Program-made: the position numbers and the translations under genes
Source: Candidatus Liptonbacteria bacterium
GTDB taxonomy: Bacteria > Patescibacteriota > Minisyncoccia > UBA6257 > 2-01-FULL-56-20
NCBI GenBank assembly: GCA_016182105.1
Contig: JACOXZ010000001.1
Location: 1 to 53,351 of the forward strand
DNA length: 53,351 nucleotides
Direction of reading: 5' to 3'
Shown here: piece by piece, positions 7,289 to 46,683 of the stretch
Layout: each line of letters starts with the position of its first letter
Position numbering within the stretch: the stretch's first letter is position 1
The notes under the pieces: generated by a model
Database searches by the model: none
Told to the model about the DNA's origin: nothing
The model's input: only the letters and a program-made list of their open reading frames with translations

Positions 7289-7616
7289 AGATTAAAATTG
7301 TGGGCGGCAGAACGATCCAGAGTAAATAAAAACCTATAAAAATGAGCCCGAAAAAGCTGTAGACTATTAGGCTAAGGAAAATCCGGCCGGAGCGAAAAAT
7401 AACTCCCAAGATTCTCCCCACAATCGTGTAGTCTTTATAAAGCGGATGAAAAAAATACTTAAGCGTTATGCGAAGGGCAAAAGTCTGGTCCAGTCGTTCA
7501 TAGAAAATTATAACCCAGTGATTAAAAACCCTCACTGCGTCGTGATACCAGTGGTGAAAAAAATCAAAAATCCGATAAAAAAACCGCTGAATGAGATAGG
7601 TTAAGGCAAAGTTCAT
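7269..7616 (-). CDS. Small membrane protein coupled to the Clp ATPase gene
   Basis: 115 aa, aromatic and hydrophobic C-terminal helices, overlaps the Clp start. Confidence 0.75.
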   Translation of the reverse strand: MNFALTYLIQRFFYRIFDFFHHWYHDAVRVFNHWVIIFYERLDQTFALRITLKYFFHPLYKDYTIVGRILGVIFRSGRIFLSLIVYSFFGLIFIGFYLLWIVLPPTILIYALRGF

Positions 7617-7747
7617 CCCTCACTCTTCAGAGATCATGCATCTTTTTTCAAAGCATGATCTTACCTCACGAGCGACCTTGAAAAGAAACATTTTGTCTAT
7701 AGTACTCATTTTGATGACGCAGAGAAAATCTCTGAAGAGTGAGGGAT
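7615..7747. mobile_element. MITE-like element with 20-bp terminal inverted repeats at a start codon
   Basis: ATCCCTCACTCTTCAGAGAT (7615-7634) and its perfect reverse complement (7728-7747). Flanks are TCAT and TTAT. Confidence 0.75.
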
Positions 7748-13102: not shown

Positions 13103-13172
13103 CCCCATTAGAAATAAGCCCTGCCATGGCGGGGCTATCGCCCCCTTCTATGAGGGTGGATTTCTAAACGGG
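13103..13172. mobile_element. Short TIR element with internal hairpins
   Basis: Imperfect TIRs CCCCATTAGAAAT / ATTTCTAAACGGG, 4-bp direct flanks TCAA (13099-13102, 13173-13176), internal GCCCTGCCATGGCGGGGC hairpin. Confidence 0.6.
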
Positions 13173-13192
13173 TCAAGAAGAAAGTGACGGAA

Positions 13193-13221: not shown

Positions 13222-13381
13222 ATATACAAAGAGGCAATTCGGCAAAAGATCCGGCAATCGGCAATTTTAATTCGGCAATTGCCGGATTCGTTTTTGCCGG
13301 ATTAGTTTTTGCCGTATATAGTAAAATCAAGCTTATCCGATAATGCGATAAAACCTACGTTTTAGCCAAAAAAGCTTGTAA

Positions 13382-13552
13382 AAAATGTTTAGCGCTAAAC
13401 ATTTTATTTTTTATTTTTATAAAAAACTAGGTTTTACGGGCAAATTTTGGTTTTTGTTGTTTTCAATGTTTAGCGCTAAACATTGCGCACGGAAAAATTG
13501 TTTAGCGCTAAACATCGTGTTAATCTGTAAAAAATGTTTAGCGCTAAACATT
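13382..13552. repeat. Cluster of four perfect palindromes with core TGTTTAGCGCTAAACA (fifth copy at 13836-13855)
   Basis: Copies at 13382-13405, 13464-13485, 13499-13514 and 13533-13552. Confidence 0.9.
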
Positions 13553-14001
13553 GTGCACAAAGAACAGGGAAAATAGGCGAAGAAAAAGCCTGTGAATTCT
13601 TAAAATCTAAAGGGTATCAAATAATCAAAAGAAACTACCAAAAACCATGGGGTGAAATAGATATTATCGCCTTCACACCAGACAAAACACTTGTATTTTT
13701 TGAGGTAAAAACCATACGGTCCCGCTATGCGGGATCTCGCGAAGCGAGACAATTTTATGATAATTGGGCGGATTCTCTCAAGCCAGAGGATAATTTAAGC
13801 CAAGCCAAGTTAAAAAAGATCCGTCGTTCAGCGCAAATGTTTAGCGCTAAACATTCCGATTTAATTTGTGAAGAAAAAGGTTGGCGTATAGATCTTCTTG
13901 CGTTGACCTTTCGACAGAACTTAGGATCAATCCTAAACGAGTCGAATGGATTGACAACAAATAAAGAAGATTGTATAATAAATCATTACCAAAATATATA
14001 A
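13534..14001 (+). CDS. yraN: YraN family (UPF0102) PD-(D/E)XK-like protein
   Basis: G..GE..A..FL..KGY.I..RN....WGEIDII......LVF.EVK motif. Contains palindromic insertions. Start is uncertain. Confidence 0.88.
   Translation: MFSAKHCAQRTGKIGEEKACEFLKSKGYQIIKRNYQKPWGEIDIIAFTPDKTLVFFEVKTIRSRYAGSREARQFYDNWADSLKPEDNLSQAKLKKIRRSAQMFSAKHSDLICEEKGWRIDLLALTFRQNLGSILNESNGLTTNKEDCIINHYQNI
13951..13979 (+). promoter_or_regulatory. Consensus sigma70 promoter inside the yraN 3' end, facing yebC-ruvC
   Basis: TTGACA, 17 nt spacer, TATAAT. Confidence 0.75.
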
Positions 14002-20477: not shown

Positions 20478-20607
20478 CCCCGTCACCTTAGAAAGATCGC
20501 GTTTTTCACAACGCTTTTTGCCAAAATATAGCTGTCGTATTTTTAATCTGATTTGCGAATGAAGGACGTCCACTCAAGAAAAACGGCTGGCGCTCACATC
20601 TTTCTAA
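20478..20607. mobile_element. Truncated copy of the 46545-46648 TIR element
   Basis: Left end CCCCGTCACCTTAGAAAGAT and internal CAAGAAAAACGRCTGGCGCTCACATCTTTCTAA are shared with 46545-46648. The right end is cut short. Confidence 0.7.
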
Positions 20608-20612
20608 ATTTA

Positions 20613-20692
20613 CCCCGTTACATCCAGAAGATTCTAGACTTCAGGTTGGAGAAGAATGACGTAATCGGATCAACAGTTGGGATGTAACGGGG
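20613..20692. mobile_element. Short element with 13-bp TIRs
   Basis: CCCCGTTACATCC (20613-20625) / GGATGTAACGGGG (20680-20692). Confidence 0.65.
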
Positions 20693-31060: not shown

Positions 31061-33817
31061 TTAAATATTGAAGGCTTCGCATGTATTTAGTAGGTCTTGT
31101 GCATTGTCAAAGTCGTTTATAATACGCGGATCTGAAAGTTGAGTTTGATATTGATTAAGTAAGTCCGCGCTCGCTTGACCTGTGCCGTACGTCGCGTAGA
31201 GGGTAGTTATTAGAGCATCGTAGTCTGCGGCTGGGTCATTTAAAGCGTTGTTTATGAAGGCCAAAAGGCTGCTATCTTGGGACCGAAGGTTTGCTTGTTG
31301 TACCAGCCACTGGTCATAAAGAGGAGTCCAGTATGCTAATAATAGTGCGGCTTGCTGTTCATATTGATCAGCCCTAGGATCGATTTTGCTTTGGCAGACA
31401 GAAATGGCTTGTCTTAAAACTTGAATCGTAGAACTTGCAGCAATTAGCAATTGGTCGAGTACGCCAATAGAAGCCTGGTTGTTGCTCAAAATCTTGTTAG
31501 CTTCCGAAGTAAAGGCGGTTTTAGGGTCATAAGGGCATACGTCAAGTAGCGCCTGTGCTTGGGCAGGGCCGTCGATAATACTTGGATTTGAAAGTTGATT
31601 TAGATATGTCTCGAGTAAAGCCGTGCTCGTTTGGACCGTGCCGTACGTCGTGTGAAGGTCATTTATTTTAGTAAGGTAGTAGTCTGGCGGGAGTGGGTCA
31701 GGCGGCGAATTTAAGGCGTTGTCTATGAAGATCTCGAGACTATCAACTTGGGACTGAAGGTTTGTTAGTTGTACCAACCACTGGTTATAAAGGTTAGTCC
31801 AGTAAGACAGCAATCGCGCTACTTTCTCTCTGTACAAATCGCCCTGCGGGCCGGCTACGGATACACAGCCAAGAGCCGCTTTTCTTAAAATTTCAAGCGT
31901 AGAACTTGCAATAGGCAGCAATTGGTTCAGCATATCAATAGAAGCCTGGTTATTATTCAAGATTTGGTAAGCTTCTTGAGTGAATGCGCCCTTGGGGTCG
32001 GTGATGACATTGCTTCCAGTCGTGCCGTACGTGGCAGTTGGATCGGCTAACCCCGTTTGGCCGCTAAGGAGAAGTTTGTTTAAGAATGAGTTTACAAGAG
32101 CAGCCACGAGACCGACTATATCTTGGGCGTTTACGATACGGTGAATAGGCGCTCCCAGGGCGCTATCAACGACTCTTCCGAGCGCCACGCCGGGGGTGGT
32201 GTTTTGCCATCCGTCCTTGGTGCAGGTTCTAAAAGTGCCAGTCGTGGGATTCAGAGATTTTTTTAGATAGTCCTCGCCAATTACATCTGCGGCAGCGATA
32301 GCGTCAGTTTCTAGATAAGGGGGTGGAAGGGTGTTTGTATCTATTATTTCAGTCATTGTATGCCTTTGGGGGCTGGCGCAGACCTTGGTTGAGAGAAATC
32401 CTTGGCTGCCTTGGGATTCTGAATCAGCGGAAGCCTTTGATTTTTCAGACTGCCTTAGAGCCACATCGCTTACCTGGATCATGCTTCCAAAGAAATTATT
32501 GTTTGGCTGGATAGCAGTGGTATAGGCCAGCCAGCTGCCGTTTTGAAAGCTGTCGTGGAAGGCTTCGACGTTTGAAATAATTCGATCCAAGGTGCAGGAA
32601 AGCTGTTGGGTAGGTATTTCAATAGACGGCTGGAGAGCGAGTTTAAGGAGCGGCTGAAACGGCTCACAGACGCCTGGCAGGATTTTATAGATAGCGGAAG
32701 CTGCAGCGTCCTTCGCTTGTTCTGTAATAAAAGCCTTCCAGTTTTGTATAAACTGCGGTTTGCCTCCGCCCTGGATCCATTTTATTGTCTGCTGGACCAG
32801 CTGGTGGATCAACTGGTTTTTAAGAAGTTCAACCGCTATTTTTTTTAAATACTCCCAGACCATCCGAGCCCAAAGCACCGGATCGAAAACGATATCCCCG
32901 AATCCTAAAAAGGCGTGAGCTTGTTTTATTGTGAAGAGTCCGATAAAACCCGCTATAAGTTTATTTTGTTTTTCTAAAGAAAACTGTTTTAAGGAAGAAA
33001 GTTTTTTAAATTCTTGTTCAAGGTTTTGTACTGCTTTGAAATAATTTTGTTCCTGTGATTGGATAAGCATAGCTATTTTTAGTGGGTCTTCTGTTTCATC
33101 AAGGAGAGCCAAACCGTTTCTTTGATGAGCAAGAAGAGTTAGAAAACTTTTATGAAAATCTAGAGCTATGCTCGGGACCGAGATTTTTTCCAAACCAAGA
33201 TTAACTTTCTGAACCGCAGTCTTCAGAGAGCCTAAGGTCCTAGGTGAAATTCCCTGGTCCAATTCGGTTGGCAGCTGCGCTTGAAGACCCCCCCAGTTAT
33301 CTTGGAATATTTTACCTAAAGATTCGCTGTAGGCGAGAACATCATCAGCTGAATAATTATTAATAACCTTAACTTTGTCTTGCGGAATTGAGATTTTCCA
33401 TCTCTCGGCTATTAACTTTTTAAGATCTCCATTATTAATGTTTATCGTGCCAAGCAGTTTATCTGTGTCCGGGGCGACTATGGAAGTTTGGCCATCCTGG
33501 TCTTGCGGGCCTTCGGGGTTTAAGGCTACAAGTTCGCGGGCAAGATTGTCAGCCAAGTTGCTTGTTAAGTTGTTCGAGCTATTTTCCGAAAGATCTGCAG
33601 CTGCTAATCTTTGGGATAAATCTTCGGAATGAGGAATTGGTTCGACAAAGGCGCTTTTTCCTAAATTCGGAAGTTGATTTTGAGCCGTTTGTTTTTCGAG
33701 ATCCTCACGATTTAAATTAACGTTTGAAATTTTGGGGCTTGCGAAAAATAAAATCGAGGAGCTTGCAATAGCTGCTAAAATCAGAAAAGAGGCTACAAGC
33801 TTTTTGTGGCTAATCAC
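31061..33817 (-). CDS. Large exported hypothetical protein with a tandem ~157-aa C-terminal repeat
   Basis: N-terminal TM. Repeat units begin at DPK (31999 and 31528). Confidence 0.8.
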   Translation of the reverse strand: MISHKKLVASFLILAAIASSSILFFASPKISNVNLNREDLEKQTAQNQLPNLGKSAFVEPIPHSEDLSQRLAAADLSENSSNNLTSNLADNLARELVALNPEGPQDQDGQTSIVAPDTDKLLGTININNGDLKKLIAERWKISIPQDKVKVINNYSADDVLAYSESLGKIFQDNWGGLQAQLPTELDQGISPRTLGSLKTAVQKVNLGLEKISVPSIALDFHKSFLTLLAHQRNGLALLDETEDPLKIAMLIQSQEQNYFKAVQNLEQEFKKLSSLKQFSLEKQNKLIAGFIGLFTIKQAHAFLGFGDIVFDPVLWARMVWEYLKKIAVELLKNQLIHQLVQQTIKWIQGGGKPQFIQNWKAFITEQAKDAAASAIYKILPGVCEPFQPLLKLALQPSIEIPTQQLSCTLDRIISNVEAFHDSFQNGSWLAYTTAIQPNNNFFGSMIQVSDVALRQSEKSKASADSESQGSQGFLSTKVCASPQRHTMTEIIDTNTLPPPYLETDAIAAADVIGEDYLKKSLNPTTGTFRTCTKDGWQNTTPGVALGRVVDSALGAPIHRIVNAQDIVGLVAALVNSFLNKLLLSGQTGLADPTATYGTTGSNVITDPKGAFTQEAYQILNNNQASIDMLNQLLPIASSTLEILRKAALGCVSVAGPQGDLYREKVARLLSYWTNLYNQWLVQLTNLQSQVDSLEIFIDNALNSPPDPLPPDYYLTKINDLHTTYGTVQTSTALLETYLNQLSNPSIIDGPAQAQALLDVCPYDPKTAFTSEANKILSNNQASIGVLDQLLIAASSTIQVLRQAISVCQSKIDPRADQYEQQAALLLAYWTPLYDQWLVQQANLRSQDSSLLAFINNALNDPAADYDALITTLYATYGTGQASADLLNQYQTQLSDPRIINDFDNAQDLLNTCEAFNI

Positions 33818-40348: not shown

Positions 40349-41956
40349 TTAGATTTCTTCTCTTAATCTATAACTAAAGGCCTCGGCCAAATGCTCGGCA
40401 GAGGTTTTTTCTTTCTGCTCGAGGTCGGCGATGGTGCGGCTGGTTTTAAGAAGTCTAAAATAGCCGCGGGGCGAGAGTCGGGTTTTGTCCAAAGTTTCTA
40501 GGAAATCTTCGGCGGCCTTATCCAGATTTACCAATTCCTCGGTTTGCTTCGAGCTCATCTCGGCATTGGTTTGTCCGCCGAAGGCGTGCGCCCGAGGCCC
40601 ATCCGCCTTTGGCGGAGATCCGCCTCTGGCGGAGATCTTTTTGAAACGTTCTTTCTGGAGTACCCTAGCAGATTCAACCTGTTTTTTAATACCCGGGCTT
40701 TCAGGATTTCCGATTCTTTTTCGCCTTAACTCTTTTAGATCAATCCTCGGTACTTTGATTTGAAGGTCAATGCGGTCAAGCAAGGGCCCGGAAATCTTCT
40801 TCTGATAGCGGATGACTTCATAAGCGCCGCAGCGGCACTCTTTCTCCGGGTCGCCCCAGTAGCCGCAAGGACAAGGATTCATTGCCGCTATAAGAGAAAA
40901 ACGGCTAGGAAAAGTTAGGGTATTTTTGGCTCGGGCCACCCTCACCATTCCGGATTCCATCGGTTGTCGAAGGGCCTCAAGGATATTTTTTTGAAACTCC
41001 GGCAGTTCATCTAGGAAGAGAACGCCGCGGTGAGCAAGACTGATCTCGCCGGGTTTGGGATCTCCTCCGCCGCCAACAATTGCGATTACCGAGGCAGTCT
41101 GGTGCGGCGCGCGGAAAGGCCGGTTTTTGATAAGTCCGCCTGGAGCGAGGCCGGCTGCGCTATAAATCTTCGTAATTTCAATAGCCTCTTCGCGGGAGAG
41201 CCCCGGGAGAATCCCGGTTAAGGCTTGGGCTAAGAGGCTTTTCCCAACTCCCGGAGGCCCGATCATAAGCAGATTGTGGCCGCCTGCAGCCGCAATGACT
41301 AAGGCCCTTTTCGCATGTTCTTGGCCTTTAATTTCCGAAAAGTCCACGAGAGAATTTACCACTCCTTCTTCTTTGTTTTTAAAAACAGCCGGCTCGATAC
41401 TTCGCCGACCCTCGAGAAAATCAATGGCTTCAGTAAGATTTTGAAGAGGGATTATTTTTAAATCTTTTATCGCGGCGGCTTCAGCCGCGTTTTCTTTGGG
41501 CAAGAGCAAAAATTTAAAGCTAGCTTCACGAGCCATCTCGCTAATATTGAGCGCGCCATTTATTGGACGGAGCCGTCCGTCCAGGGCCAGCTCGCCCGCG
41601 AAAACTTTGTCGCTGGTTTCAAAGTCTTTAATTTGTTTTGTGGCCAAAAGATAGCCTAAGGCGATTGCGAGGTCATACTGCGAGCCGGCTTTTTTAATAT
41701 CCGCAGGCGCGAGATTTACGGTGATTTTCCTGTTCTCTCTATTAGGAGGCTTTGCGCCGCTGTTTTTTAAGGCCGAGTTAACTCTTTCCTTGGCTTCGCT
41801 TACGGCTTTGTCCGCGAGGCCGACAATATTAAAAGCATGGAGACCGACATTCAGGTCAATCTCTACTTCAATTAGTTTGGCTTTAATGCCCTCAAGCTCG
41901 GCCGAGTGGACCTTAGCGAGATTTTTAAGCACGAGTGATCTTGAATTTGTCGCCAA
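40349..41956 (-). CDS. comM: YifB/ComM Mg-chelatase-like AAA ATPase
   Basis: IVGL.D.AV.EA.ERV, NLAPAD..K.G..YDL, GPPGVGKS, PFRAPH, GE.SLAH.GVLFLDE, NPCPCG. Confidence 0.92.
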   Translation of the reverse strand: MATNSRSLVLKNLAKVHSAELEGIKAKLIEVEIDLNVGLHAFNIVGLADKAVSEAKERVNSALKNSGAKPPNRENRKITVNLAPADIKKAGSQYDLAIALGYLLATKQIKDFETSDKVFAGELALDGRLRPINGALNISEMAREASFKFLLLPKENAAEAAAIKDLKIIPLQNLTEAIDFLEGRRSIEPAVFKNKEEGVVNSLVDFSEIKGQEHAKRALVIAAAGGHNLLMIGPPGVGKSLLAQALTGILPGLSREEAIEITKIYSAAGLAPGGLIKNRPFRAPHQTASVIAIVGGGGDPKPGEISLAHRGVLFLDELPEFQKNILEALRQPMESGMVRVARAKNTLTFPSRFSLIAAMNPCPCGYWGDPEKECRCGAYEVIRYQKKISGPLLDRIDLQIKVPRIDLKELRRKRIGNPESPGIKKQVESARVLQKERFKKISARGGSPPKADGPRAHAFGGQTNAEMSSKQTEELVNLDKAAEDFLETLDKTRLSPRGYFRLLKTSRTIADLEQKEKTSAEHLAEAFSYRLREEI

Positions 41957-42299
41957 TCTTCTTCAGGGTATTTTTGATTTTGCACTTCTGACAAAGCCTG
42001 GAGGCTGGCACAATCGAAAGAACTTTGCCGAAAATTTCGCTCTGACACTGTTCGCAAATCCCGTATTTGCCGGTTTTGATTTTGTTTAAAGCGAGATCAA
42101 TATCGTTAATTCGATCTTTAAATACCCGACTTATAGCTAAGCGGTTGCCGATCTCTTCAGCCTCGTCAGATTCTTCGTCAAAGTGATCCGTGTCATCGCC
42201 AAAATCTTCCGGTTGGCTTTGGGCTTTGGCTTCTTTAAGGAGCCTGACCTTTTCTTTCTCCAGTTTTTCCTGATATTTTTTAAGCTCTTCCTTGGTCAT
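41925..42299 (-). CDS. TraR/DksA C4-type zinc finger protein
   Basis: Coiled coil with acidic tip, followed by AL.KI..G.YGICEQC...I......VP...LC.KC. Confidence 0.88.
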   Translation of the reverse strand: MTKEELKKYQEKLEKEKVRLLKEAKAQSQPEDFGDDTDHFDEESDEAEEIGNRLAISRVFKDRINDIDLALNKIKTGKYGICEQCQSEIFGKVLSIVPASRLCQKCKIKNTLKKIGDKFKITRA

Positions 42300-42417
42300 C
42301 CCGTTAGAAGCAGATCGCGATCTAGGCGAGTCTGCGGTTTAATTTTATTCATTGTAATGACTATATATTTATTGATATTTGGAGTTTTTGCAACGCGATC
42401 GCGGCTTCTAACGGGAT
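42298..42417. mobile_element. MITE-like element at the dksA-like start codon
   Basis: ATCCCGTTAGAAGC / GCTTCTAACGGGAT TIRs with TCAT direct repeats (42296-42299, 42417-42420). Confidence 0.75.
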
Positions 42418-42483
42418 CATGTCTAGCCCCATAATAGTCCTGGAAAGCGGTCATAGCAAGAGAGCGGGCTTGATTTACGTTCT

Positions 42484-44181
42484 TTACTTGAAAACCCTTA
42501 CGGTTTCAAGGTACCAATTATTTACTTGTTGAAAACGGTTGGCTGATTCAGCTATTGAACCGCTCGCGAGCCCCATAAGACCTTTTTTGGTTATATAAAG
42601 GTAGTTCGGCGAGTATAGAAAAACGGCCGGATAATCAAGAGTAATGATTTTTTGGAGTTCGCTGAATTGATTTTTCCGCTTTTCCGGATCCAGATTTTGG
42701 CGTATAGCTTCAATAAGTTCATCAGCCTTTTTGTTGTTGTAAAGGCTTAAGTTAAGGCCGGGAGAAAATCTGCCGGAAGAATGCCAGAAAGAAAATAGAT
42801 CTGAGTTTTCGTTTAAGACATTGCCAAAAAGCAAGGCCTCGTAATCTCGGTTTTTAATTACAGTCTCCACAATTTCTTCTGGTGAGAGGACGACCAAGTT
42901 TATCTTAAATCCGATCTCTTCCCAGGCTGATTTTAAGATATTGGCCGTTTTTAAAAGGAAAGGTACTTGAGGAATAACTAAATTAAATCCGAGTTCAATT
43001 TCACTGTTCTTTATTTTTTTAGAGCGAAAGCCACTCGAGGATGATTTCTGCCAAAGAGCTTTCTCTAAAATATCACTAGCCAATTGGACTCGTGAAAGCG
43101 AAGAAGTGGAAACTAAATCTTCTAGGGCTTCCGGATCAAAATAAGCCGCCCCTTTGGGGATGGGATGAGAGAGCATCTCAGCCTCGCCCTCAAAAGTTTC
43201 TCGGATAAGCTTTTCTTTGGGAGCGGTTAGCGTCAAGGTCCTCCTTACCTCAAGTTCTTTAAAACTTAGATTTCGGCTTTGGTTTAGAAAAACCGCATAA
43301 TAGCTCGGCAAGCTAAACTTAATAACCTGATGCGGACGTTTCAGTCCCCCAAGCTCCTCTGTCCGAAGAGTTATAAAGCCGTCGACTTCGCCGCTCGAGA
43401 AGGCTAGGACTAGCTCCTCGGTCTTCCGGAAAAAGCGAAAACTGAATTTTTTAATGAAGGCTGGACCCAGAACGTAGTTCGGATTGGCCTTAAGCTCGTA
43501 GAGAGTGATAAAGCCGCCGCTTTCCTTGTCATAAGATTCAAATTGATAAGGTCCGCTCCCTACAGGACTTAAGTTATAGTCCGAGAGCCGCCAGTTAGCT
43601 CCTGGAATTTCGCCAAAAATATGCCGAGGCAGGGGACGGAGGTTCTTCAGATTTTCCGCAAAAAAAGAGTAAGGACTTGCTAGGCTAAACTCAAGTTCGA
43701 GTTCGCTTATGCGGGAGGCAAGCACCCCCTGCCAGCTTAAAAAAAAAGGCGAATTGGTATTAGGGTCCTGAATTTTCTGAACGGTAAAGAGGATGTCATC
43801 GCTTAGGAGCGGCCTCTGGTCCGACCACTTTAAGTTTTCTTTAAGTCTCACCTTCCAGATCCGACCATCTTTCCCGGATTCGATCTTACTTGCGAGGTCC
43901 TCGAGTCGGCTGAAGACTAATCTTACAAGACCTTTATCAATTTCGCCGATTGCGAGAACCGGGTTTATGTAGGCTGGCTGGCCAACTATTGCTTCAATAT
44001 ATTTTCCGCCAGGAGCCGGGATTTCTATGGTTGCCCCCGCAATAAAGATAGCGGTTAAGCCGCTCGAACTTAGGACAAAGAAAAAGGCGGCAAACCAAAA
44101 AACTCGGCGCTCCGCCTCTTTAAGGTTCAGGTATATTTTTTTTAAATTACCCACTTCAGGAGACGAGCTGAATAATGGCAA
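42484..44181 (-). CDS. Peptide ABC transporter substrate-binding protein (family 5) with N-terminal anchor
   Basis: G.P.YINPVL, W.D..P...DD..FT, PVGSGPY, FWHS, NLS.Y.N...D.LIE. Confidence 0.88.
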   Translation of the reverse strand: MPLFSSSPEVGNLKKIYLNLKEAERRVFWFAAFFFVLSSSGLTAIFIAGATIEIPAPGGKYIEAIVGQPAYINPVLAIGEIDKGLVRLVFSRLEDLASKIESGKDGRIWKVRLKENLKWSDQRPLLSDDILFTVQKIQDPNTNSPFFLSWQGVLASRISELELEFSLASPYSFFAENLKNLRPLPRHIFGEIPGANWRLSDYNLSPVGSGPYQFESYDKESGGFITLYELKANPNYVLGPAFIKKFSFRFFRKTEELVLAFSSGEVDGFITLRTEELGGLKRPHQVIKFSLPSYYAVFLNQSRNLSFKELEVRRTLTLTAPKEKLIRETFEGEAEMLSHPIPKGAAYFDPEALEDLVSTSSLSRVQLASDILEKALWQKSSSSGFRSKKIKNSEIELGFNLVIPQVPFLLKTANILKSAWEEIGFKINLVVLSPEEIVETVIKNRDYEALLFGNVLNENSDLFSFWHSSGRFSPGLNLSLYNNKKADELIEAIRQNLDPEKRKNQFSELQKIITLDYPAVFLYSPNYLYITKKGLMGLASGSIAESANRFQQVNNWYLETVRVFK

Positions 44182-44365
44182 TTATCATAAAAAGGGCGGC
44201 GAGGAGGATTGTGCTTCGAAAAATTATTTTTTCGAGTCCCCGGCGCGTTTGATAAAAGCCGCCTTCGCCGCCAAAAATGCCGGAGAGTCCCGCAGATCTT
44301 TCCTGAAGCAAAATCAAGATAACCAAGACGATCGAGATGATTAGTTGGAGGATGGTAAGTATCAT
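44156..44365 (-). CDS. secG: Preprotein translocase subunit SecG
   Basis: LILLQ.R.AGLSG.FGG......TRRG.EK flanked by two TM helices. Confidence 0.9.
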   Translation of the reverse strand: MILTILQLIISIVLVILILLQERSAGLSGIFGGEGGFYQTRRGLEKIIFRSTILLAALFMIIAIIQLVS

Positions 44366-44485
44366 CCCGTTAGAGATAGGAAACGCCCTGCGTTTCCGTT
44401 GATGTCACGCAAGACCTTTAACTGATGTAAATACATGGTTACAAAACTTGATGTAGTTTATAAGATGGGGCATCTCTAACGGGAT
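44364..44485. mobile_element. MITE-like element at the secG start / upstream stop junction
   Basis: ATCCCGTTAGAGAT / ATCTCTAACGGGAT TIRs, (A)TCAT direct flanks, near-identical to 44834-44956. Confidence 0.85.
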
Positions 44486-44835
44486 CATTTAATTAAAAGG
44501 TGGAAGGCAAAATTCACTGCTCCTACGACGAGGGAGGCGAAAACCAAAGCAGGAACGGTTTCAATCGTAAGATTTTTAGTGAGGATGTCAAGAATATAGA
44601 TCACAATCGCGTTTACGAAAAAGAGTCCTAGTCCCAAGGTCAAAATAATAATCGGTCCCAAAATTAATTTAAGCACCGGTTTTAAGACGAAATTTAACCC
44701 CGTTAGAATCAAAGCAATCACAGCTACTTTTTTAAGATCAGAAGTCAGTTTAAAGCCTTGAATAAAATAGGCCGCTGCCATAAGCGATAGGCCATTTGCC
44801 AAAACCGCGCCAATCACCTTTATTAACCACTTCAT
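44485..44835 (-). CDS. Phage holin family (YvlD-like) 4-TM membrane protein
   Basis: LN..LKP.LKLI..P...LTLGL..F.VNA motif. Confidence 0.85.
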   Translation of the reverse strand: MKWLIKVIGAVLANGLSLMAAAYFIQGFKLTSDLKKVAVIALILTGLNFVLKPVLKLILGPIIILTLGLGLFFVNAIVIYILDILTKNLTIETVPALVFASLVVGAVNFAFHLLIK

Positions 44836-44956
44836 CCCGTTAGAGATAGGAAACGCTTTGCGTTTCCGTTGATGTCACGCAAGACCTTTGACTGATGTAA
44901 ACGCATGATTACAAAACTGGATGTTTAATTCATAGATGGTTAATCTCTAACGGGAT
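44834..44956. mobile_element. MITE-like element at the holin-family gene start
   Basis: Same TIRs as 44364-44485, with TTCAT direct flanks (44831-44835, 44956-44960). Confidence 0.85.
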
Positions 44957-44983
44957 TCATATCCTAATTTTACCTCTTTTTTG

Positions 44984-46516
44984 TTAAAGGAGTTTCTCAA
45001 GCAGGCTTTCGCCGGTCATCTCCTTAGGCTTCTCAAGATCCATCAGTTCGAGAATAGTTGGCGCGACATCAGAGATTATGCCAGCAGTTTCATTTTCGAG
45101 ATTCTCTTGGTTCGGAAACTTACGGCCCTTGAACTCTCCACCCACAAGATAAAAAGGCACCGGATGCGGGTCGTGCTTCGTCTCGACTCTCGAAGTCATA
45201 GGGTTCAAGACTTGTTCGAGATTGCCATGATCGGCAGTGAAGATTATGGTGGTATTGGGACCAGAAGCCACTTTTAAGAGCCGGCCGATCTCTCCATCAA
45301 TTAGTTTGACTACCGTTAAAGCCGCCTCGTAGTTGCCAGTGTGCGCGATTACGTCGGGATTCGCGTAATTGGCTAAGATAAAATCAAAAGACTGGTTTTC
45401 TAGGCCCTGGAGAATTCGGTCAGTGATCGCTGGGGCCATCATCTCCGGGTGTTTTTCAGGATGAGGAGTGGAAATCGAGGGAATGAGTACGCGATACTCG
45501 TTTTTAAAAGGCGGCTCGCGGTAGCCATTAAAAAAATAAGTGACATGGGCATATTTATAGGTTTCAGCAATTCTGATTTGATTTTTGCCTGCTTCGGAGA
45601 GCGCGAAACCCAAGGGTTTTTCTATAGCTTCTGGTTCGAAAGCTGCTGGTACGGCTGATTTTTCTTCGTAGCGAGTCATTGTTACTACGTAAAGATTTCT
45701 CAATTTTTTGGTTTGGAATTTAGAAAAGTCTTTATGGGTAAAAACTGAGTTTAATTCCTTAACGCCGTCTTCACGGAAGTTAAAGAAAATTAAAGAATCA
45801 TTATCTTCAATATTTTTTCCGCCCGTAAAGCGATAAGGGGGTAGAAATTCTTCGCTTGATCCCTGATTTAGCCCCTCGTTTATGATTTTTTGGGGATTAT
45901 CTACTAATTCCCCGCCCTCGCCAACCATGGCAAGATATGCCCGCTCAATGAGCTGCCAGTTTTCTTCTCTGTCCATGGCATAATACCGGCCTGTTAGACT
46001 CCCCAGTTTTTCTTGGGGTACATCATTCAAGAATTTTCCAATGGAGCGGGGAGGGCTGTCTTTTCCGTCAGCAAAAAGGTGAAGTTTTAGCCTCTTCATC
46101 CCCTCAATTTCGGCCATTTTAAGTAGCGCTTTTAAGTGTGGAAGCGAGGCATGGATATTGCCGTCGGTTAAAAGGCCAATCAGATTCACGCTTGAGTTAT
46201 TTTTTCGGGCATGGTCAAAAGCGGCCCTTAGCACGGAATTATTGAAAAGACTGCCATCTCTCACAGCCAGGGTAATTCTAGGGAAATATTGATAAATCAC
46301 TTTACCAGCGCCAAGCGTAAGATGCCCCACTTCGCTATTGCCTACCTCGCCCCAAGGCAGGCCAACGCTTATGCCCGCAGCCTGAAGGCTGGTTAAAGGG
46401 AAATTTTCCTCAAGCCACTTCAAATTTGGCGGACTCGCTACATATATGGGGTTTGACTCATCTTTCCGGCCAAGCCCCCAGCCGTCTAAAACAACCAAAA
46501 GTACGGTTTTTTTCAT
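44984..46516 (-). CDS. gpmI: 2,3-bisphosphoglycerate-independent phosphoglycerate mutase
   Basis: LDGWG, GNSEVGH, GRYYAMDR, NFR.D, AET.KYAHVTYFFNG, N.D..AH, TADHGN. Confidence 0.96.
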   Translation of the reverse strand: MKKTVLLVVLDGWGLGRKDESNPIYVASPPNLKWLEENFPLTSLQAAGISVGLPWGEVGNSEVGHLTLGAGKVIYQYFPRITLAVRDGSLFNNSVLRAAFDHARKNNSSVNLIGLLTDGNIHASLPHLKALLKMAEIEGMKRLKLHLFADGKDSPPRSIGKFLNDVPQEKLGSLTGRYYAMDREENWQLIERAYLAMVGEGGELVDNPQKIINEGLNQGSSEEFLPPYRFTGGKNIEDNDSLIFFNFREDGVKELNSVFTHKDFSKFQTKKLRNLYVVTMTRYEEKSAVPAAFEPEAIEKPLGFALSEAGKNQIRIAETYKYAHVTYFFNGYREPPFKNEYRVLIPSISTPHPEKHPEMMAPAITDRILQGLENQSFDFILANYANPDVIAHTGNYEAALTVVKLIDGEIGRLLKVASGPNTTIIFTADHGNLEQVLNPMTSRVETKHDPHPVPFYLVGGEFKGRKFPNQENLENETAGIISDVAPTILELMDLEKPKEMTGESLLEKLL

Positions 46517-46544: not shown

Positions 46545-46648
46545 CCCCGTCACCTTAGAAAGACTTCATCAAGAATTTAGTTTTTTACGAATATTGAGCG
46601 TATTACCAAGAAAAACGACTGGCGCTCACATCTTTCTAAGGTGCGGGG
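46545..46648. mobile_element. MITE-like element with 4-bp target duplication
   Basis: CCCCGTCACCTTAGAAAGA / TCTTTCTAAGGTGCGGGG TIRs, with TAGG on both sides (46541-46544, 46649-46652). Confidence 0.8.
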
Positions 46649-46654
46649 TAGGTA

Positions 46655-46683
46655 TTGACTAAAAAAGGACTCGGGACTATACT
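46655..46683 (+). promoter_or_regulatory. Sigma70 promoter of rny
   Basis: TTGACT, 17 nt spacer, TATACT. Confidence 0.7.

Follow-up and report, generated by a model that had tools for sequence, protein, structure and literature searches.

We analysed a 53,351-nt stretch of DNA from a Candidatus Liptonbacteria bacterium (contig JACOXZ010000001.1 of assembly GCA_016182105.1; the whole stretch is hereafter called the window), in which three inverted-repeat elements of about 120 bp, all on the minus strand, lie on the start codons of genes. In gene orientation, all three share one order, namely a duplicated ATGA(A), a T, CCCGTTAGA, approximately 100 nt, TCTAACGGG and the ATG of the real gene, and in each of them the inverted ends are perfect over 10 bp including the T...A tips. 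Copy 1 (42299..42416, 118 bp including the T at 42416 and the A at 42299), a non-coding derivative of what we call subfamily A, is laid out as T(42416)-CCCGTTAGA...TCTAACGGG(42415-42300)-A(42299), with the host ATG beginning at the A at 42299, and it could be aligned end to end with 17 other copies of the subfamily. The downstream sequence, ATGACC, begins a 124-aa gene (41925..42299, minus strand), the product of which is zinc-ribbon-like with a C-terminal CxxC..CxxC motif and matched no Pfam family at E ≤ 1e-5. The upstream duplicate ATGA (42417..42420, minus strand) opens an upstream open reading frame (uORF) of 19 codons, and the target duplication is a 3-nt TGA (42419-42417).

The other two copies belong to subfamily B and are read here as deletion derivatives of a nuclease-encoding element described below; they are 92% identical across 93 nt. 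Copy 2 (44365..44484, minus strand, 120 bp including the T at 44484 and the A at 44365; core 44483-44366) is preceded by AAATGA and followed by ATGATA, the start of secG (44156..44365, minus strand, 69 aa; Pfam PF03840, 55.6 bits). Its upstream duplicate ATGA (44485..44488, minus strand) holds an ATG that opens a 27-aa uORF (MIPLEM...), and the duplicated 3-nt TGA (44487-44485) now provides a holin-like gene with its stop codon. This latter gene (44485..44835, minus strand; a 116-aa membrane protein of the Phage_holin_4_2 family, Pfam PF04020, 64.1 bits) is in turn the host of copy 3 (44835..44955, minus strand, 121 bp including the T at 44955 and the A at 44835; core 44954-44836), downstream of which ATGAAG opens the gene. 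The upstream duplicate of copy 3, ATGAA (44956..44960, minus strand), opens the 6-codon uORF MNPVRD*, the target duplication is a 4-nt TGAA (44959-44956), and a -10-like TAAAAT lies 6 nt upstream of this old start.

The RNA of each copy was predicted to fold into a long hairpin, with the closing stem pairing the A and U of the host AUG (copy 1, -38.3 kcal/mol, z -5.15; copy 2, -43.1 kcal/mol, z -5.07; copy 3, -40.0 kcal/mol, z -3.52). Rfam gave no match inside the elements, the only match being a weak and unrelated DUF805b (18.7 bits) in a binding-protein gene, and a scan for sigma-70 promoters returned 5 sites against 4.2 expected, with one upstream of copy 1 (42459-42431) and none inside any element. 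A preliminary description, made from the window sequence alone, had reported the three ATGA(A)-flanked elements at the ATG of minus-strand genes, with coordinates that prove right to 1-2 bases, together with the uORFs of copies 2 and 3; these are all present as described.

Insertion sites and empty alleles

The window genome is represented by 588,305 bp in 28 contigs (94% complete). The exact 9-mer at the element end occurs 91 times on its two strands, compared with approximately 4.5 expected, and the pattern read backwards had no match in the 101 genomes of the taxonomic family. In a census of end pairs with at most one mismatch and 40-400 bp apart, 52 pairs were obtained, of which 41 were kept and 11 dropped; the latter were two pairs of other families (C1:20614 and C21:14723, given as contig and position), three chance pairings with a solo 9-mer (C1:44699, C7:16853 and C19:58742) and six partial combinations of two nested elements on contig C20, their two inner copies included. 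Most of the 41 copies are 98-122 bp long, 40 of them are gene-less, and the short ones contain no conserved open reading frame (ORF) besides the left-over frame discussed below. T..A tips were found in 39 of the 41, and 36 adjoin an ATG at the head of an ORF of 67-798 codons (threshold, at least 60 codons). Subfamily A copies are alike over their full length and several are almost identical, and therefore they appear to have spread as short units rather than having decayed independently in place.

The target duplication is an exact 4-nt TGNN in 26 of the 41 copies and a 3-nt TGA in 7, the fourth base being variable (A, G or T) yet matched on both flanks, and the upstream ATG is kept in 32. In other genomes, variants with C...G tips have GTG downstream instead of ATG, with ATGAA still upstream. 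As these variants leave GTG, it is the element that supplies the rebuilt start codon with its first base, and the target that becomes duplicated is TGNN. Thus, the direct repeat reported in the preliminary description exists, but its extent had to be corrected to TGNN (4 nt, sometimes 3 nt), with the A being the last base of the element itself.

The 36 host genes are all different and include those for the ribosomal proteins L24, L23, S13, L13 and L9, FtsZ, HisRS, SSB and DNA polymerase I, as well as SecG, Fmt, TsaE, a PilB-type ATPase and HtrA. With genes called crudely as the longest ORFs (607 genes, 86.5% of the genome coding) and with copies treated as independent, ATGA starts were occupied in 35 of 197 cases, compared with 1 of 228 other ATG starts (Fisher p = 7e-12), so that 35 of the 36 occupied starts are ATGA. 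Of the ATGAR sites left unoccupied, 1860 are within genes, 120 at starts, 269 in intergenic regions and 20 at stop codons alone. The ATGAR-type insertions, 32 in number, lie at starts without exception, as against 34.5% expected when insertions in gene interiors are taken as lethal (binomial p = 1.6e-15). Furthermore, the orientation to the host gene is uniform, in 17 of 18 copies of subfamily A, 8 of 8 of B and 2 of 2 of D, or 27 of 28 orientable copies in all; the 6 copies of subfamily C have only their 16-nt ends in common, with unrelated middles, so that no orientation could be assigned to them. An extended target motif or a Shine-Dalgarno signal was considered and rejected, the upstream profiles of occupied and unoccupied starts being alike and a G-rich box being present in neither. 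Targeting of leaderless transcription starts was likewise rejected, a TANNNT box being found at 7 of 32 occupied and 109 of 390 unoccupied ATG starts, with no enrichment.

To compare the loci with empty alleles, contigs from public groundwater and lake metagenomes were aligned with positions 42000-45300 of the window. In a contig of a related strain (88% identity), 44835 is joined to 44979 with 16 letters between, so that it represents the window locus minus copy 3 and one ATGAA, with one base differing in the retained 16 nt. In contigs from two runs (93% identity), 44365 is joined to 44487 with 10 letters between and the secG copy is absent; the holin-like gene there stops with TAA 8 nt ahead of the secG ATG. 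A contig from a third run also lacks the secG copy and has a TAATG overlap at the junction of the two genes. Empty sites in related strains are thus at hand for two of the three window loci, and in another genus of the same family, the same three genes are adjacent with no element, with GTGA at the secG site. The summed depth of contigs at the element ends was 10-25 times that of their flanks, indicating that the ends are highly repeated in those communities. The proposal that the secG copy had split an ATGA stop/start overlap was not borne out by these alleles, the near relatives having either TAA with an 8-nt spacer and ATG or TAATG, and the related genus GTGA. As for the core of the preliminary description, a non-autonomous inverted-repeat family at translation starts, the repeats are real and highly non-random, and the description is supported in this: copies are not placed regardless of gene starts and empty alleles do exist, the two points on which it had made itself depend.

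The nuclease-encoding element

No transposase gene had been recognised in the window. A partner with the same ends is in fact present in the genome, although what it encodes is a GIY-YIG nuclease and not a recognised transposase. This full-length copy (C25:3721-3995) is 275 bp long, has B-type ends with a perfect 10-bp inverted repeat (TCCCGTTAGA / TCTAACGGGA), lies on the start of fmt and encodes an 85-aa protein matching the GIY-YIG family (Pfam PF01541, 54.4 bits). The frame of its upstream host ATG reads MNPVRD, a stop, two codons and then the 85-aa ORF, the stop codon of which is the TGA formed where the element's last A meets the duplicated TGA, and it overlaps the host ATG as rebuilt. 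The MNPVRD uORF of copy 3 therefore exists as first reported but is not a random frame, being the N-terminus of the nuclease read from the host ATG. When aligned with this element, the B copies of the window differ by a single internal gap of 155 bp. The gap is bounded exactly by the two arms of an internal inverted repeat, which now form a GGAAACGC...GCGTTTCC hairpin (in copy 2, the subterminal GGAAACGC-CCT-GCGTTTCC at 44379..44397), and the deleted 155 bp are the part of the nuclease gene that this repeat brackets.

Two composite copies (C20:11715-11931 and C20:33677-33861), both on start codons, were also observed, in which an AAAT-ended element sits inside a B copy, replacing the loop of the GGAAACGC hairpin exactly, with AT on either side.

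The strong predicted hairpins, which pair the A and U of the AUG, and the fixed position and orientation before a gene could also be expected of a host regulatory leader, that is, a hairpin RNA module that controls translation or stability and has spread by duplication. This explanation is disfavoured and we hold it to be highly unlikely, since the host genes have no common theme, the element is absent at the same genes in related strains and genera, target duplications are found, the middles vary freely to the point that subfamily C copies are alike in their ends only, no Rfam match was obtained within the elements, and the parent form codes for a nuclease.

In the taxonomic family, short copies were found in 52 of the 101 genomes and end pairs 235-295 bp apart in 16. 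Among 15 full-length elements examined there, 14 have an intact ORF of 84-94 aa and 13 have the stop on TGA at +1; the ORF starts at the host ATG (MNPVRD/G...) in 2 and at an internal ATG 10-22 nt in for 12. The encoded nucleases are 42-65% identical to the first one, with Y, G, R, H and E invariant at the expected catalytic positions, and the PF01541 match (53-55 bits) spans nearly the whole of the 84-94 aa, indicating a single domain. The predicted fold (predicted local distance difference test, pLDDT, 85) is that of GIY-YIG and matches UPF0213 proteins and the structure-specific nuclease Slx1, the nearest solved chains being those of UPF0213 (1zg2, E = 6e-9) and Slx1. Against NCBIfam, nothing was above cut-off, TIGR01453 reaching 21.9 bits for a cut-off of 56. 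As judged from these matches, the protein is a single-domain GIY-YIG nuclease of the UPF0213/Slx1-like, Ssn-like kind and the sole gene of the unit.

Relatives of the nuclease were found at more than 583 loci in species-representative genomes, and the best 80 of them were examined. They come from many lineages of Patescibacteria and from Omnitrophota, Planctomycetota, Bdellovibrionales, Elusimicrobiota, Desulfobacteraceae and Proteobacteria, and in 78 of the 80 the same inverted ends lie 271-312 bp apart, in 72 without mismatch. Of the 53 T..A-tipped loci among them, 52 adjoin an ATG, which in 48 is ATGA; a host ORF follows in 47 of the best 80 loci and an exact 4-nt duplication is present in 33. 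The element ends are far better conserved than the nuclease protein. Most of the nuclease ORFs start inside the left end, and therefore the conservation of the ends acts at the DNA level, as one would expect of sites that machinery of the element itself recognises.

In 18 of the 78 cross-phyla nuclease copies, C...G tips are combined with other flanks (TTTAC duplications or GTAAA downstream), which suggests a second target class, and one copy lies on a contig of a metagenome-assembled genome labelled Woesearchaeota (archaeon). In a related genome (contig C12:765-866), a tRNA-Thr(CGT) gene was found completely enclosed by these inverted ends, and a second such element in another genome (C12:4275-4380) appears to contain a tRNA; the element ends may carry cargo besides the nuclease.

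Inverted ends with a 3-4-nt duplication are the classic signature of DDE-type transposition, and the short copies might be MITEs (miniature transposable elements bounded by inverted repeats) that owe their movement to a DDE-type transposase acting in trans, either unassembled or lost. In that case, the GIY-YIG gene would be a passenger, and the pattern at starts purely the result of selection, a view to which the high coding density lends some weight, since 86.5% of the genome is coding and most sites would be lethal, as does the incompleteness of the assembly. We consider this unlikely, if still worth some weight. A search of the assembly with six transposase families, the only ones searched (Y1_Tnp, PF01797; DDE_Tnp_1; rve; DDE_3; Transposase_mut; and OrfB_IS605, PF01385), gave no hits, and the close spacing of the ends around 78 of the best 80 nuclease genes leaves no room for a second gene. 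Moreover, no ATGAR-type copy is found at the ATGAR sites that are free between genes (269) or at stop codons only (20), the youngest A copies, which are almost identical, likewise lie at gene starts throughout, and a symmetric DDE mechanism would not yield 27 of 28 copies in one orientation.

Proposed translational restart and mode of insertion

No Shine-Dalgarno signal is present upstream of starts across the window genome, and a TANNNT -10-like box 5-9 nt upstream accompanies 28% of unoccupied ATG starts (109 of 390) compared with 6% of internal ATGs (275 of 4658), which suggests that many of its mRNAs may be leaderless. We evaluated the reading frames of those short copies in which an upstream ATG could be recognised (29 copies). 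The frame of the old ATG contains 45 stops, as opposed to 103 and 89 in the other two, and is fully open in 11 of the 29 copies, as opposed to 0 and 1. In 16 of the 29, it is in register, ending on the TGA that overlaps the rebuilt ATG, and open, in-register members are found in each of subfamilies A, B, C and D. Copy 1 does have an open frame in register, but the ATG that leads into it lies at 42454. AUGA is known as a device by which termination and restart are coupled in operons. The frame pattern, together with the strong preference for ATGA, would fit such a termination-restart at AUGA, as a process that is not obligatory.

Taken together, these results lead us to propose that the window copies are internally deleted, gene-less, MITE-like derivatives of a mobile unit of approximately 275 bp that consists of a GIY-YIG nuclease gene and a built-in restart, a reading to which we assign a probability of about 70%. 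It builds on what was demonstrated directly, namely the anatomy of the copies, the duplication, the empty sites, the copy number, the orientation, the nuclease gene and its conservation, and the frame statistics. At a start codon, the unit occupies A|TGNN with a single orientation and a duplication of 4 nt (sometimes 3 nt), and the host ATG is rebuilt from the element's last A and the duplicated TG. The old ATG, with the host initiation signals, now opens the element frame, which terminates at the TGA of GGG-A-TGA, overlapping the rebuilt ATG. Ribosomes would start at the old site and cross the element, producing the nuclease or a left-over peptide of approximately 40 aa, and their passage would melt the terminal hairpin, after which termination on AUGA would be followed by a new start on the host gene. 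Such a restart, which is likely but deduced from sequence, would allow essential genes to tolerate the insertion and the nuclease to be made with neither a promoter nor a ribosome-binding site of its own. The preliminary description had held that the element may rewire translation; the evidence does point to an effect on translation, but it leans to a built-in restart that keeps the host gene working over regulatory rewiring.

The direct repeats at the base of a stable stem, together with the tolerance of the insertion by essential genes, also brought to mind a removal or bypass at the RNA level, either by intron-like excision at the stem base or by ribosomes hopping between the two AUGAA repeats. 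This is extremely improbable in our estimation. No self-cleaving or intron family was matched in Rfam, the middles are unrelated among subfamilies, and, unlike at known bypass sites, the upstream AUG is followed by neither a stop nor a rare codon; furthermore, an open, in-register frame ending on UGA fits plain termination and restart.

With respect to how the proposed unit reaches start codons, the landing may at least partly be a property of the insertion step. Targeting is favoured by the emptiness of the intergenic ATGAR sites, even for the youngest copies, and by the one-way orientation of gene-less copies; on the side of selection, only insertions at start codons would be harmless because of the restart logic. 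The nuclease probably moves the element, by cutting the hairpin or cruciform of its ends as an Slx1-like enzyme would at a hairpin base. A further step, in which the 275-bp unit would represent a new class of transposon that mobilises itself, with a bare structure-specific GIY-YIG nuclease both excising and inserting the hairpin-ended element in place of any DDE, HUH or recombinase enzyme, and with translation-start DNA recognised at insertion instead of random insertions being filtered by selection, is put forward tentatively, as a possibility that falls somewhat short of an even chance.

Several points weigh against the main account, that of a mobile nuclease-encoding unit with a restart. 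Movement by the nuclease is something we infer; GIY-YIG enzymes are hydrolytic, and a joining step would need host functions, and to our knowledge no insertion-sequence family uses a GIY-YIG enzyme. With the assembly at 94% completeness, a transposase could be unassembled. No coding parent of subfamilies A, C and D was found among the 15 places examined, which had GAG-, GAT- or TA-type subterminal sequences and left out 4 listed places, and one 261-bp place with paired ends carried no ORF. The site statistics depend on the crude gene calls and on the independence of copies. Lastly, in 18 of the 29 short copies the frame contains stops or misses the register, and the three window copies, as read from their upstream ATGs, are among them; thus the restart is not needed for a copy to persist.

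Approximately 6% of the genes in this genome (36 of about 607 by crude calls) bear a mobile hairpin on the start codon, ribosomal protein genes, ftsZ and polA included, which challenges the view of such positions as untouchable; the stop-overlapping-start restart would be a simple trick that renders the insertion nearly harmless. If the 85-94-aa nuclease mobilises the element, it would represent a new and extremely small kind of transposon, present across Patescibacteria and several other phyla, and if the self-mobilising reading is true, it would be the smallest autonomous mobile DNA known, one that borrows the host start codon and returns the ribosome via an AUGA restart. More practically, in the annotation of genomes of ultra-small bacteria, predicted starts are displaced by the elements and small ORFs arise that are spurious, and tool builders could take an interest in a nuclease whose 10-bp hairpin-end site is conserved and in a natural landing pad that preserves translation of the host gene.

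Other repeats and comparison with known systems

A second family also lies on start codons. Its window copy (7616..7746, minus strand), first grouped with the elements above, does adjoin the ATG of a minus-strand gene but belongs to a separate family, with 18-nt inverted ends (CCCTCACTCTTCAGAGAT), T-CCC...GGG-A tips and ATAAT rather than ATGA as the upstream flank. In the genome, 10 of 10 copies of this family (approximately 129 bp) adjoin an ATG on one side, the others being C2:25509-25637, C6:10455-10580, C8:9433-9561, C15:10091-10217, C20:30718-30846, C21:22111-22239, C21:35943-36071, C26:1799-1925 and C21:64319, so that element-bearing gene starts of the two families come to 46. The elements with CCCC..TTAGAAA ends near 13103, 20478 and 46545, described earlier as related, exist as well but make up separate families, with TCAA or TAGG duplications and none at start codons. 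One of these families, with inverted ends of approximately 19 nt (CCCCG-TCACCTTAGAAAGA), is represented in the window at 46545-46657 and 20478-20607 and by approximately 15 more ends on other contigs; its flanks are TAGG at 46545 and mostly TCAA/TTGA elsewhere, and it does not lie at start codons. Small hairpin elements with related ends are present at 13104-13175 and 20614-20691 (CCCCATTAGAAAT with a TCAA duplication; CCCCGTTACATCC).

Two other GIY-YIG mini-genes were found in the genome, one intact (C21:2004-2300, 98 aa) with a different inverted repeat of 20 nt, and one a decayed 46-aa fragment (C21:61140-61272) within a 13-nt inverted repeat (CCCCCACACTAAT). Elsewhere in the window, a 27-nt repeat built on the palindrome TGTTTAGCGCTAAACA occurs five times within 480 bp (13377-13855) and looks like an operator array, and two pairs of 122-136-nt direct repeats (31089-31999; 71-75% identity, approximately 456-471 nt apart) probably represent an internal duplication in a gene.

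Among published systems, the closest that we found is Ssn, a single-stranded-DNA-specific, single-domain GIY-YIG nuclease of approximately 94 aa (Chenal et al, 2025; PMC11893778), to which that article ascribes a modulating role in natural transformation; by likeness, the present nuclease may belong near the Ssn clade (CDD cd10448), its best solved relatives being UPF0213 and Slx1. In the Ssn system, the ssn gene is flanked on both sides by hairpin repeats (NTS/SRM) that are also scattered gene-less through the genome, an architecture that its authors remark resembles an insertion sequence, and REP/REPIN-RAYT and IS200/IS605 are cited in its Discussion. The two systems are alike in a single-domain GIY-YIG protein, and they may be alike in a gene between hairpin-forming repeats that also occur gene-less; here, the gene lies between inverted ends and contains an internal inverted repeat, and 40 gene-less copies are present. 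They differ in that the Ssn repeats are hairpins of approximately 30 bp with another consensus, the present repeats being distinct from the printed NTS consensus by eye, with no consensus search run, and in that the Ssn repeats are not reported as inverted ends with target duplications or at start codons. The article contains no mention of "start codon", "MITE" or "Patescibacteria" and none of target duplications, and no Patescibacteria appear in the supplements examined (PMC11893778). In the open full-text literature, with subscription journals outside its coverage, we found no description of start-codon-inserting MITEs or of GIY-YIG mini-elements.

Like MITEs, the present elements have inverted ends and a target duplication, are small, non-coding and present in many copies, and, in the case of subfamily B, are derived from a longer coding element; what separates them is that the parent codes for a GIY-YIG nuclease and not for a recognised transposase. 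The Correia elements (CREE/NEMIS) of Neisseria and ERIC are likewise inverted-repeat elements of 100-150 bp with target duplications and many copies, and they are transcribed together with adjacent genes and fold into hairpins as RNA; they derive from DDE insertion sequences, duplicate TA or similar, and lie at varied distances from genes in both orientations, whereas the present copies sit on the start codon in one orientation, with the ATG rebuilt, and have a parent that encodes a GIY-YIG nuclease.

REP/REPIN-RAYT and IS200/IS605 resemble the present system in that hairpin repeats are tied to one small enzyme gene and in strand- or orientation-specific insertion beside a short target word. 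IS200/IS605 and RAYT rely on a Y1 HUH transposase and leave the target unduplicated, in contrast to the clear duplication found here and the lack of Y1_Tnp and OrfB_IS605 matches. In free-standing GIY-YIG homing genes, such as those for I-TevI and the Seg enzymes of phage T4, the selfish unit is also essentially one GIY-YIG nuclease gene. Homing enzymes, however, have a DNA-binding domain and one cognate site and depend on recombination with homologous flanks, whereas the present unit has a bare catalytic domain, inverted ends, 36 different host genes and target duplications, and the likeness of its nuclease to I-TevI is weak (the TIGR01453 score given above; 1mk0, E = 1.6). Finally, the palindromic elements of Rickettsia are also small palindromic mobile repeats that survive where they are translated with a host gene; those elements lie in frame within the protein, whereas the present ones stay outside it by means of a stop codon that overlaps the rebuilt start.

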